Part shown: positions 46,880-47,338 of the stretch, one piece after another
How positions within the stretch are numbered: the first letter of the stretch is position 1
Layout: each line of letters starts with the position of its first letter
Sequence record: PP925834.1
DNA from: Escherichia phage MiataMamis
Reading direction: 5' to 3' (one strand)
Length of the DNA stretch: 64,000 nt
Translations under genes and position numbers: made by a program
The notes under the pieces: model-generated
The model's database searches: none
The model's input: only the letters and a program-made list of their open reading frames with translations
Told to the model about the DNA's origin: nothing

Positions 46880-47338
46880 TCAACACTTTTTGTACTCTAC
46901 TACAACCACATCAATATCTGTGGTTGCAAGATTAATTACATCTTCTACATGTTCCCACTTTAGACCGCCAATACCGCATCCAATTTTAGGAATGTAGAAC
47001 GGCAATGACACACCTTTGAATACCTCGTTGACTCGCTCAAAACCTTTCATTATTGAGAAGTATTCAGCATTGGGCCCTGGGTAGAACTGGGTATACAGGT
47101 TGATTCCATATACGACCCTGTTCTTGGCAAAATGCTCCCAACAAGAAAACATACCCAGCTTGTCCAGATTACCATAGGCAGTCTCTTTGTCGGCTGCCAG
47201 TGCTTGAGGGAACTCACGGGCAATATCTTTCGCTATGCCTGCACCCATTGTATGAAAGCAGTTACAACCGTGGATCAGGTGACCAGCACCGCTCTTAAAA
47301 AGGGAGATTAAATCTCCCGCTACAGTATCAATAATCAC
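46880..47338 (-). CDS. macro domain protein (ADP-ribose binding/processing)
   Basis: HLIHGCNCFHTMGAGIAKDI and IPKIGCGIGG match macro-domain glycine-rich motifs. Confidence 0.6.
   Translation of the reverse strand: MIIDTVAGDLISLFKSGAGHLIHGCNCFHTMGAGIAKDIAREFPQALAADKETAYGNLDKLGMFSCWEHFAKNRVVYGINLYTQFYPGPNAEYFSIMKGFERVNEVFKGVSLPFYIPKIGCGIGGLKWEHVEDVINLATTDIDVVVVEYKKC

Follow-up and report, generated by a model that had tools for sequence, protein, structure and literature searches.

A Tk.4-type macrodomain protein of Escherichia phage MiataMamis and its probable role against DarTG2-type defence

Two phage macrodomain proteins have been described as antidotes to DarTG2 defence, and both carry the name AdfM, for anti-DarT factor Macrodomain. 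In T4, tk.4 was the single significant match of a transposon library (HIDEN-SEQ) on a DarTG2 host, and a clean tk.4 knockout renders the phage DarTG2-sensitive, for which reason the gene was renamed adfM (bioRxiv 10.1101/2025.11.20.689424, a preprint of November 2025). The second, PhiKZ gp104, biochemically removes from DNA the ADP-ribose that DarT2 installs and protects chimalliviruses from DarTG2; it requires a catalytic asparagine for full activity and is imported into the phage nucleus (2026 Cell Reports, PMC13309987). In the literature library searched, nothing on phage AdfM was found beyond these two studies. Here we examine a relative encoded at 46880..47338 on the minus strand of a 64,000-nucleotide stretch of Escherichia phage MiataMamis (sequence record PP925834.1), hereafter the window. 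The 152-residue MiataMamis protein is a further member of a gene family that, along with its role, was reported in 2025–2026, so that the finding, though correct, no longer surprises. What the analysis adds is that the Tk.4-type AdfM is of a Gln type resembling SCO6735, unlike DarG and PhiKZ AdfM, together with a spread over ∼5.6 per cent of phage records, fusions of the macrodomain to NADAR domains and a minority linkage to NARP1-type genes. The general picture drawn from 2022 to 2026 is unchanged by it.

A bacterial chromosomal protein, SCO6735 of Streptomyces coelicolor (PDB 5E3B), which is tied to antibiotic production and is not a phage gene product, also informs the comparison. It cleaves thymidine-linked ADP-ribose from DNA, better than DarG or TARG1 does, and protects cells from DarT (PMC9411070). 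Structural superposition makes its Gln85 the equivalent of DarG Lys80 and TARG1 Lys84, N27 positions Q85, and the substitutions Q85A/E and N27S abolish activity; this glutamine sets the SCO6735 and ALC1 groups apart from DarG and TARG1 (PMC9411070). Thymine-linked ADP-ribose (ADPr) on DNA is hydrolysed by TARG1, DarG and SCO6735, and oligonucleotides are preferred over the free nucleoside (PMC12879935).

A macrodomain of the T4 Tk.4 family

The MiataMamis open reading frame (ORF) has 152 codons and a GTG start at 47336-47338, with the stop codon included in its coordinates, and its translation contains both of the glycine-rich motifs from which the original prediction had named a macro-domain protein, HLIHGCNCFHTMGAGIAKDI at residues 20-39 and IPKIGCGIGG at residues 116-125. 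The GTG start is supported by three observations. The N-termini of the T4, Phi1, rV5 and EdH4 orthologues align residue for residue with it (MIIDTV.GDLI in rV5, EdH4 and Phi1; MIVKYIKGDIV in T4), the GTG is common to rV5-like phages, and a GAGGAG element (47349..47354, minus strand), which is also conserved in rV5 and EdH4, stands 10 nt upstream within the 3' end of the preceding ORF, where it probably acts as a Shine–Dalgarno element. Comparison with rV5 gives a ratio of nonsynonymous to synonymous substitution (dN/dS, Nei–Gojobori) of 0.19 and comparison with the divergent EdH4 allele one of 0.10, and the gene is thus under purifying selection. This low ratio, together with matches to Pfam Macro (PF01661; 25.9 bits against a gathering cut-off of 22, E 1e-5) and to PHROG 335 (E 1.4e-59), argues that the ORF has not arisen by chance. 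It is probably expressed early.

By sequence and by fold the protein is a genuine macrodomain. Its AlphaFold model (predicted local distance difference test, pLDDT, 94.7) shows the macro fold, with its three alpha/beta/alpha layers and a pair of Gly-rich loops for ADP-ribose binding, and its nearest relatives in both structure and sequence are ALC1-like or TARG1-like proteins (TARG1, DarG, SCO6735 and Poa1p) and not MacroD, PARG or the viral X-domain. The identity that the original prediction proposed is therefore borne out by a Pfam score above cut-off, by the model and by the class of the relatives, and the lack of a macro-domain match that was to count against it was not encountered. It is almost certain that the protein is a catalytically competent ADP-ribosylhydrolase.

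Within this class the key relative is T4 Tk.4 (sequence from NC_000866), which is homologous over the full length (residues 1-150; 39 per cent identity, 65 per cent positives, E 1e-43) and is of the same length. Both are single-domain phage macrodomains, and they share HGCNCFHTMG...D...NLYTQFxPGPN...PxIGxGIG, so that the Tk.4-type signature (HGCNC...D50...NxYTQ...PxIGxG) is present in full. The MiataMamis gene differs from that of T4 in coming from the Vequintavirinae instead of the Straboviridae, in its GTG start and in its neighbourhood, which in T4 runs from tk to tk.4 and vs. The rV5 orthologue, gp204, is annotated 'tk.4: phosphatase ... similar to RB49 Tk.4', and other records have 'macro domain protein'.

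The most specific models to match are those of DarG (NCBIfam, E 1.7e-12; PADLOC, E 1.4e-13), and membership of the DarG2 antitoxin family (NF048014) was considered and rejected on score, architecture, the lack of a catalytic lysine and the lack of an adjacent toxin gene. The match scores 47.3 bits against a cut-off of 250 and covers only positions 4-144 of a 338-position profile. DarG2 proteins (T. aquaticus, 5M31/5M3E; M. tuberculosis, 5M3I) carry the catalytic Lys80 after FPTK, a C-terminal DarT-binding domain and an adjacent darT, whereas the MiataMamis protein has Gln84 and a single domain; the catalytic-site asparagine of DarG2 (N22 in T. aquaticus) is matched by N26. The protein is a stand-alone, single-domain product of a lytic phage, and no darT was found among the genes flanking it, which have no PADLOC match (the flanking genes, and not the whole window, were scanned for DarT).

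PhiKZ gp104 is likewise a phage orphan macrodomain of the same class, but it is only 22 per cent identical to the MiataMamis protein (E 8e-5) and has a Lys-type site, FPTK with N23/K78, in place of LYTQ; neither close gp104 homology nor the N23/K78 site was found here. Given this low identity, and the DarG-like FPTK/K78 of PhiKZ against the glutamine of the Tk.4 family, T4 Tk.4 and PhiKZ gp104, although both called AdfM, belong to separate subfamilies of one class.

A glutamine-type active site

Conservation was counted in three sets, of 121 relatives, 81 viral loci and 259 relatives, and the invariant or near-invariant residues are H23, G24, N26, C27, M31, G34, A36, D50, N80, Y82, T83, Q84, P117, G120, G122 and G125. 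The first loop comprises residues 23-36 (HGCNCFHTMGAGIA; 47231..47272, minus strand) as defined by alignment to M. tuberculosis DarG, SCO6735 and TARG1, and within it the 259 relatives retain N26 in 258 cases, C27 in 257, G24 in 256 and H23 in 252. N26 aligns with DarG N22 and SCO6735 N27, and with the second asparagine of VNTVNC in M. tuberculosis DarG, while H23 aligns with SCO6735 H24 and Poa1p H23. The phosphate-binding, Gly-rich second loop (residues 117-125, PKIGCGIGG; 46964..46990, minus strand) has its counterparts in RIGCGLAGG in both SCO6735 and BT1257 and in PRIGCGLD in TARG1; P117, G120 and G122 are invariant and G125 is kept in >97 per cent. The glycines of both loops (G32, G34, G120, G122 and G125) thus vary hardly or not at all among as many as 259 relatives, and the loss of these loops in a proper alignment, which the original prediction had named as grounds for abandoning it, was not observed.

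Between the loops lies the motif N80-L-Y-T-Q84 (47087..47101, minus strand), whose Gln84 falls at the position of the catalytic lysine of DarG (K80) and TARG1 (K84) and corresponds to Gln85 of SCO6735. In the profile alignment N80-x-Y-T-Q84 is matched to N-M-I-G-Q in both SCO6735 and BT1257 and to Y-L-I-T-K in TARG1, and in the predicted model Q84 is found just past strand E74-82. Q84, N26 and H23 align exactly with Q85, N27 and H24 of SCO6735 (chain indices 105, 47 and 44, less a 20-residue tag). Given that glutamine is present in 255 of the 259 relatives and at all 81 viral loci, and that none of the 259 has lysine there, the active site of the MiataMamis protein, of T4 Tk.4 and of the whole family is of a Gln type and not DarG-like. 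A covalent, Lys-dependent route such as that proposed for TARG1 is unlikely at a site of this type; both members of the TARG1 K84/D125 dyad (4J5S) are absent, being replaced by Q84 and G124. Yeast Poa1p (6LFQ) has a serine where the Tk.4 family has its invariant glutamine.

One further invariant residue is particular to the Tk.4 family. Asp50 (codon 47189..47191, minus strand) is conserved in 121/121, 79/81 and 257/259 relatives in the three sets, its position is occupied by Tyr or Trp in SCO6735 and in BT1257 of Bacteroides (2FG1/2AFC), two proteins that are ∼21–24 per cent identical to that of MiataMamis, and the aspartate is absent from TARG1. It could serve as a family-specific catalytic or substrate-positioning residue.

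Substrate and biological role

There is reason to think that the protein protects phage DNA. The biological role is probably, at about 0.65, the reversal of DarT2-type thymine ADP-ribosylation, the MiataMamis protein being a stand-alone ADP-ribosylglycohydrolase of the TARG1/DarG/SCO6735 ('ALC1-like') class that would act as an orphan antitoxin. When a DarTG2-type defence frees DarT2, thymines in single-stranded phage DNA would be ADP-ribosylated and replication blocked. The macrodomain would then bind the ADP-ribose through both Gly-rich loops and hydrolyse the thymine-N3–ribose bond, with N26 positioning Q84 as N27 positions Q85 in SCO6735, and free ADP-ribose and replicable DNA would be released. 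Both the substrate, thymine-linked ADPr on single-stranded DNA, and the target defence, DarTG2, are proposals. The counter-defence function of the original prediction, which gave DarG and DarT as an example, finds support in the DarTG2 sensitivity that deletion of the 39 per cent identical T4 gene produces.

That the substrate is ADPr on nucleic acid is suggested by the biochemistry of the class, by NADAR fusions, by replication-gene neighbourhoods and by the absence of the gene from T5. A six-frame profile search of the full 121,750 bp of T5 gave no family member (best 10 bits), while with the same family profile rV5 scored 202 bits, T4 165 and PhiKZ gp104 38. T5 is reported to be DarTG2-sensitive (bioRxiv 10.1101/2025.11.20.689424), and this was a comparison whose outcome could have contradicted the anti-DarTG2 hypothesis.

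The family is also broad, with a Tk.4-type macrodomain in 2,830 of 50,697 phage records (∼5.6 per cent) and, in an exhaustive profile search, 1,285 representatives (50 per cent identity clusters) at E<=1e-30. Among ten multi-domain members scanned, four are Macro–NADAR fusions, all with the full Tk.4 signature, and two carry DUF4326; the fusions (P0157, P0203, P0205 and P0234, and also P0164) are 336-570 aa long, some with DUF4326 in addition. NADAR domains, which remove guanine-linked ADPr from DNA, are found in DarG1 and in AdfN, a phage factor against DarTG1 (PMC11825919). Judged by their domain composition, such fusions would unite erasers of thymine-linked and guanine-linked ADPr, and hence anti-DarT2 and anti-DarT1 activities, in single polypeptides.

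When ORFs from the 81 viral loci were clustered, and counted over 37 macrodomain lineages, the commonest neighbours were a DnaB-like helicase (8 lineages, often directly upstream), an SNF2/ResIII helicase (8), an AAA_24 ATPase (7) and a dUTPase (5), which jointly account for 16 of the 37. On the minus strand of MiataMamis two helicases, one PIF1-like and one DnaB-like, and a family-A DNA polymerase (PolA) stand upstream of the macro gene, which lies within a long series of small ORFs, and the plus-strand half of the window holds the nucleotide-metabolism genes ThyX, NrdA/B, NrdD and PhoH.

Several observations weigh against a DarT2-directed role. Identity to T4 Tk.4 is only 39 per cent, the evidence from T4 is genetic and from a preprint in which the removal of ADP-ribose from DNA by Tk.4 was inferred and not measured, and the HIDEN-SEQ library of the Vequintavirus Bas54 was not challenged with DarTG2 (bioRxiv 10.1101/2025.11.20.689424). 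Val25 of SCO6735, whose backbone positions the catalytic water, is Gly24 in the MiataMamis protein, A33 and G88 take the place of the DNA-contact lysines K34 and K89, and the protein is mildly acidic (isoelectric point 5.9); SCO6735 moreover has an extended mobile loop, and the loop after Q84 is 5-6 residues shorter here. Early phage genes often adjoin replication genes, and such a neighbourhood is therefore weak evidence. Finally, H23, N26 and T30 correspond to H23, N26 and S30 of Poa1p, and NAPRT-like genes adjoin the macro gene in 4 of the 37 lineages, with Prs-like genes as well in two.

These last two points bear on a different activity, that of a Poa1p-type hydrolase of small ADP-ribose derivatives (ADP-ribose-1''-phosphate or O-acetyl-ADP-ribose), which would yield free ADP-ribose to support NAD+ reconstitution or to clear Sir2-type products and would not act on DNA. 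The historical label 'A1pp phosphatase' and a Pakpunavirus paper (PMC12846349) point the same way, possibly with a feed into the NARP1 pathway of NAD+ reconstitution, as does the homologue of Vibrio phage Ceto, which lies between Prs-like and NAPRTase-family genes (L007:3135-6149; similar loci are L060, L070 and L077). Such NARP1-type neighbours suggest a small-molecule ADP-ribose role in at least those phages. However, of the Poa1p catalytic set His23, Asn26, Ser30 and Gly33 (PMC12846349) the MiataMamis protein has H23, N26, T30 and A33, and across the 81 loci position 30 is variable, with T in 47 and V, I, N or A in the rest, and A, S or G is found at position 33. The invariant Q84 falls on a serine of Poa1p but on the essential Gln85 of the DNA-active SCO6735, and the active-site signature is identical whatever the gene neighbourhood. 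The T4 homologue has a DarTG2 phenotype, the fusion partners are NADAR domains and not NAD-salvage enzymes, and Sir2 occurs without the macrodomain in T5 and the macrodomain without Sir2 in T4. A Poa1p-type function is on this balance unlikely for the MiataMamis protein, and for the degradation of ADP-ribose-derived signals, which the original prediction had also allowed, no evidence was found.

Coupling to NAD+ reconstitution by NARP1, real as it is in Ceto and a few lineages, was likewise rejected for MiataMamis, since the window and rV5 1-75 kb hold no Prs-like or NAPRT-like genes, a lack that also speaks against a Poa1p-type function here. More speculatively, the free ADP-ribose released by the macrodomain might be a NARP1 substrate, and DarT-type NAD+ consumption might then be fully reversible in phages that have both.

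If the macrodomain is taken to erase ADPr from a macromolecule, it might be asked whether that macromolecule is DNA. TARG1, DarG and SCO6735 can remove uracil-linked ADPr from RNA as well (PMC13036486), SCO6735 and TARG1 act on proteins too (PMC9411070), and defences with an RNA-targeting ADP-ribosyltransferase (ART) exist, such as CmdTAC (PMC11618068); the breadth of the family, moreover, may exceed the reach of DarTG2. The protein could on these grounds be a de-ADP-ribosylase for RNA (with ADPr on uracil, for example) or for protein (with ADPr on Asp/Glu) that further ART defences or toxins of the host have modified. Against this, the sole phenotype reported for a family member, that of T4, is DarTG2-specific, the NADAR fusions indicate ADPr on nucleic-acid bases, and the adenine modification that CmdT makes in RNA is described as irreversible (PMC13036486). 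A principal substrate of this kind is improbable, and the proposal overlaps with the reversal of thymine ADP-ribosylation, because an enzyme of broad specificity could do both. A wider formulation, in which the family is a distinct, phage-dominated, Gln-type branch of TARG1-like enzymes, independent of lysine (with Asp50 possibly involved), that erases ADPr from pyrimidine bases (thymine in DNA, uracil in RNA) to counter several ART defences and not DarTG2 alone, and is coupled to NAD+ reconstitution in some phages, is doubtful, if a little easier to entertain.

It is also conceivable that DarT, or another ART, is neutralized mainly by stoichiometric binding and not by catalysis. The catalytically dead Q85A form of SCO6735 inhibits DarT in vitro, above the corresponding DarG or TARG1 mutants (PMC9411070), and the ICP1 factor AdfB works by direct interaction (PMC11481870). 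The near-absolute conservation of N26, N80, Y82, Q84 and the Gly loops in ∼259 relatives points instead to selection on catalysis, PhiKZ AdfM depends on its catalytic asparagine as noted above (PMC13309987), and a single domain of 152 residues leaves no counterpart of the C-terminal DarT-binding domain of DarG. Inhibition by binding is accordingly very unlikely to be the main mode of action.

Should the reversal of DarT2-type modification be the role of the gene, rV5-like phages, which are therapy and biocontrol candidates for use on E. coli O157 and further pathogenic strains, hold a ready antidote to DarTG2. Since DarTG2 defence is reported in pathogenic E. coli (PMC12879935), the macro gene would then be relevant to the prediction of host range.

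Genome context and neighbouring sequences

The 4.5 kb around the macro gene are 93–98 per cent identical to ∼120 rV5-like Escherichia myoviruses (Vequintavirus), the best DNA match being SophiaRose at 98.3 per cent, and position 8 of the window corresponds to rV5 position 73,087. The flanking genes are small phage ORFs of PHROGs 8157, 8967, 6957 and 11918 without a Pfam match, and no tRNA genes were found in the window.

Directly upstream, an ORF for an acidic protein of 141 aa (47328..47753, minus strand; PHROG 8157) overlaps the start of the macro gene. The original prediction had noted this overlap and thought a functional link possible. The overlap is real, as the TGA of the upstream ORF falls 11 nt inside the macro ORF (GTGATTATTGA), and the two genes are probably co-transcribed and perhaps translationally coupled. 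The link is not supported by distribution, by synteny in Phi1, T4 and G2248, by family libraries or by structure search. A two-component counter-defence module, in which the neighbour, like the DarG C-terminal domain, would mimic DNA or bind a toxin, might be suspected from the overlap, the acidity of the neighbour and an adjacency conserved throughout rV5-like phages. However, the neighbour is present in only 176 phage records (rV5-like phages and Krischvirus), whereas 2,830 contain the macrodomain; Phi1, a Krischvirus, has both, with the homologue of the neighbour and tk.4 standing 27 genes and ∼9 kb apart, and in T4 and Krischvirus it is vs that precedes tk.4. Aside from its PHROG match the protein has no Pfam, NCBIfam, PADLOC or DarG model match, and a homologue search with it returned four matches only. 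Its AlphaFold2 model is weak (pLDDT 68; the other four models 42-48), and a Foldseek search with it, which included the DarG C-terminal domain in 7OMU, gave no fold match (best E 0.035, TM 0.24). Such a module is thus extremely improbable.

The window has two copies, and no more, of the 10-bp direct repeat CCAGTTCTAC (minus strand), one in the Q84-F-Y codons of the macro gene (47081-47090) and the other in the upstream gene (47589-47598). The protein P0017, encoded on a 135.5-kb contig, is an in-frame deletion chimera in which neighbour residues 1-55 are fused, at this microhomology, to macrodomain residues ∼84-152, and it is a natural loss-of-function allele of both genes. The macro gene is therefore dispensable, as expected of an accessory counter-defence gene.

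Two allelic lineages of the macro gene are found in Vequintavirus. The EdH4 type (L005:1501-1956) has 85 per cent protein identity with a synonymous divergence (dS) of about 1.0, near saturation, and carries Lys33 (MGKGIA), like DarG and SCO6735. Seventy-three phage records lie in the band of 80–90 per cent protein identity, and most rV5-like flanks are 90–98 per cent identical in DNA (the flanks of EdH4 itself were not compared). Among the Straboviridae, the Tk.4 proteins of the RB49-like Krischvirus (Phi1, L003:10593-11045; G2248, L006:1501-1953) are 68–69 per cent identical to the rV5-type protein. Given that T4 reaches only 39 per cent, and that the upstream neighbour has its only distant homologues (∼38 per cent) in Krischvirus, these values suggest that genes may have been exchanged between Krischvirus and rV5-like phages.

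Codons 7-14 of the macro ORF encode a terminator-like 7-bp hairpin, GGGAGAT-TTA-ATCTCCC (47302..47318, minus strand; dG -10.1 kcal/mol), followed by TTTTT. In a comparison of six phages, rV5, EdH4, Krischvirus and T4 proved to have equivalent hairpins, with sequence changes that look compensatory, and in the GenBank record of Murica a 'terminator' is one of the features listed where tblastn matches the macro gene. As a conserved RNA element, however, the hairpin and U-run were rejected, as no more than 4 of 34 lineages surpass synonymous-recoding controls (rV5 lineage, p = 0.007). The structure is mostly a consequence of the encoded peptide G-D-x-I/V-S/A and at best lineage-specific; it may be an attenuator or translational-coupling element of that lineage or a by-product of the peptide.

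Among other signals, a perfect sigma-70 consensus promoter (12/12, TTGACA-16 nt-TATAAT; 46402-46429, minus strand) lies ∼450 nt downstream of the macro gene and matches by position the annotated rV5 promoter P205. Upstream of the gene, 47904-47876 and 48119-48091 are weaker promoter candidates, and 48579-48558 forms a strong terminator-like hairpin. Beyond these, a 236-aa protein with a Cys-rich N-terminus (48595-49305, minus strand) matches PHROG 1035 'endonuclease VII' and several HNH/Lar-like PHROGs, and nothing in Pfam at E<=1. The 3' end of a 423-aa ORF (49190-50461) is overlapped by the ORF of this protein, of which the rV5 annotation has a shorter version.

In rV5, ∼4.3 kb before the position equivalent to the first letter of the window, a Sir2-like gene (gp080), similar to the Sir2-like protein of T5, is followed by a nucleotide pyrophosphohydrolase (gp081; together 68070-69558, L089:28070-29558), with RNA ligase 1 (gp078) just upstream of gp080. 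The gp078–gp081 region is a further NAD/ADP-ribose-related gene set in the same genome. A functional pairing of Sir2 with the macrodomain was considered and rejected, as T5 has two Sir2-like genes and no macrodomain and T4 a macrodomain and no Sir2. Lastly, 16 GenBank records of 'Campylobacter phage' (MG0656xx, host C. jejuni) are 94–96 per cent identical to E. coli rV5-like phages in this region and look like mislabelled or contaminating Vequintaviruses.

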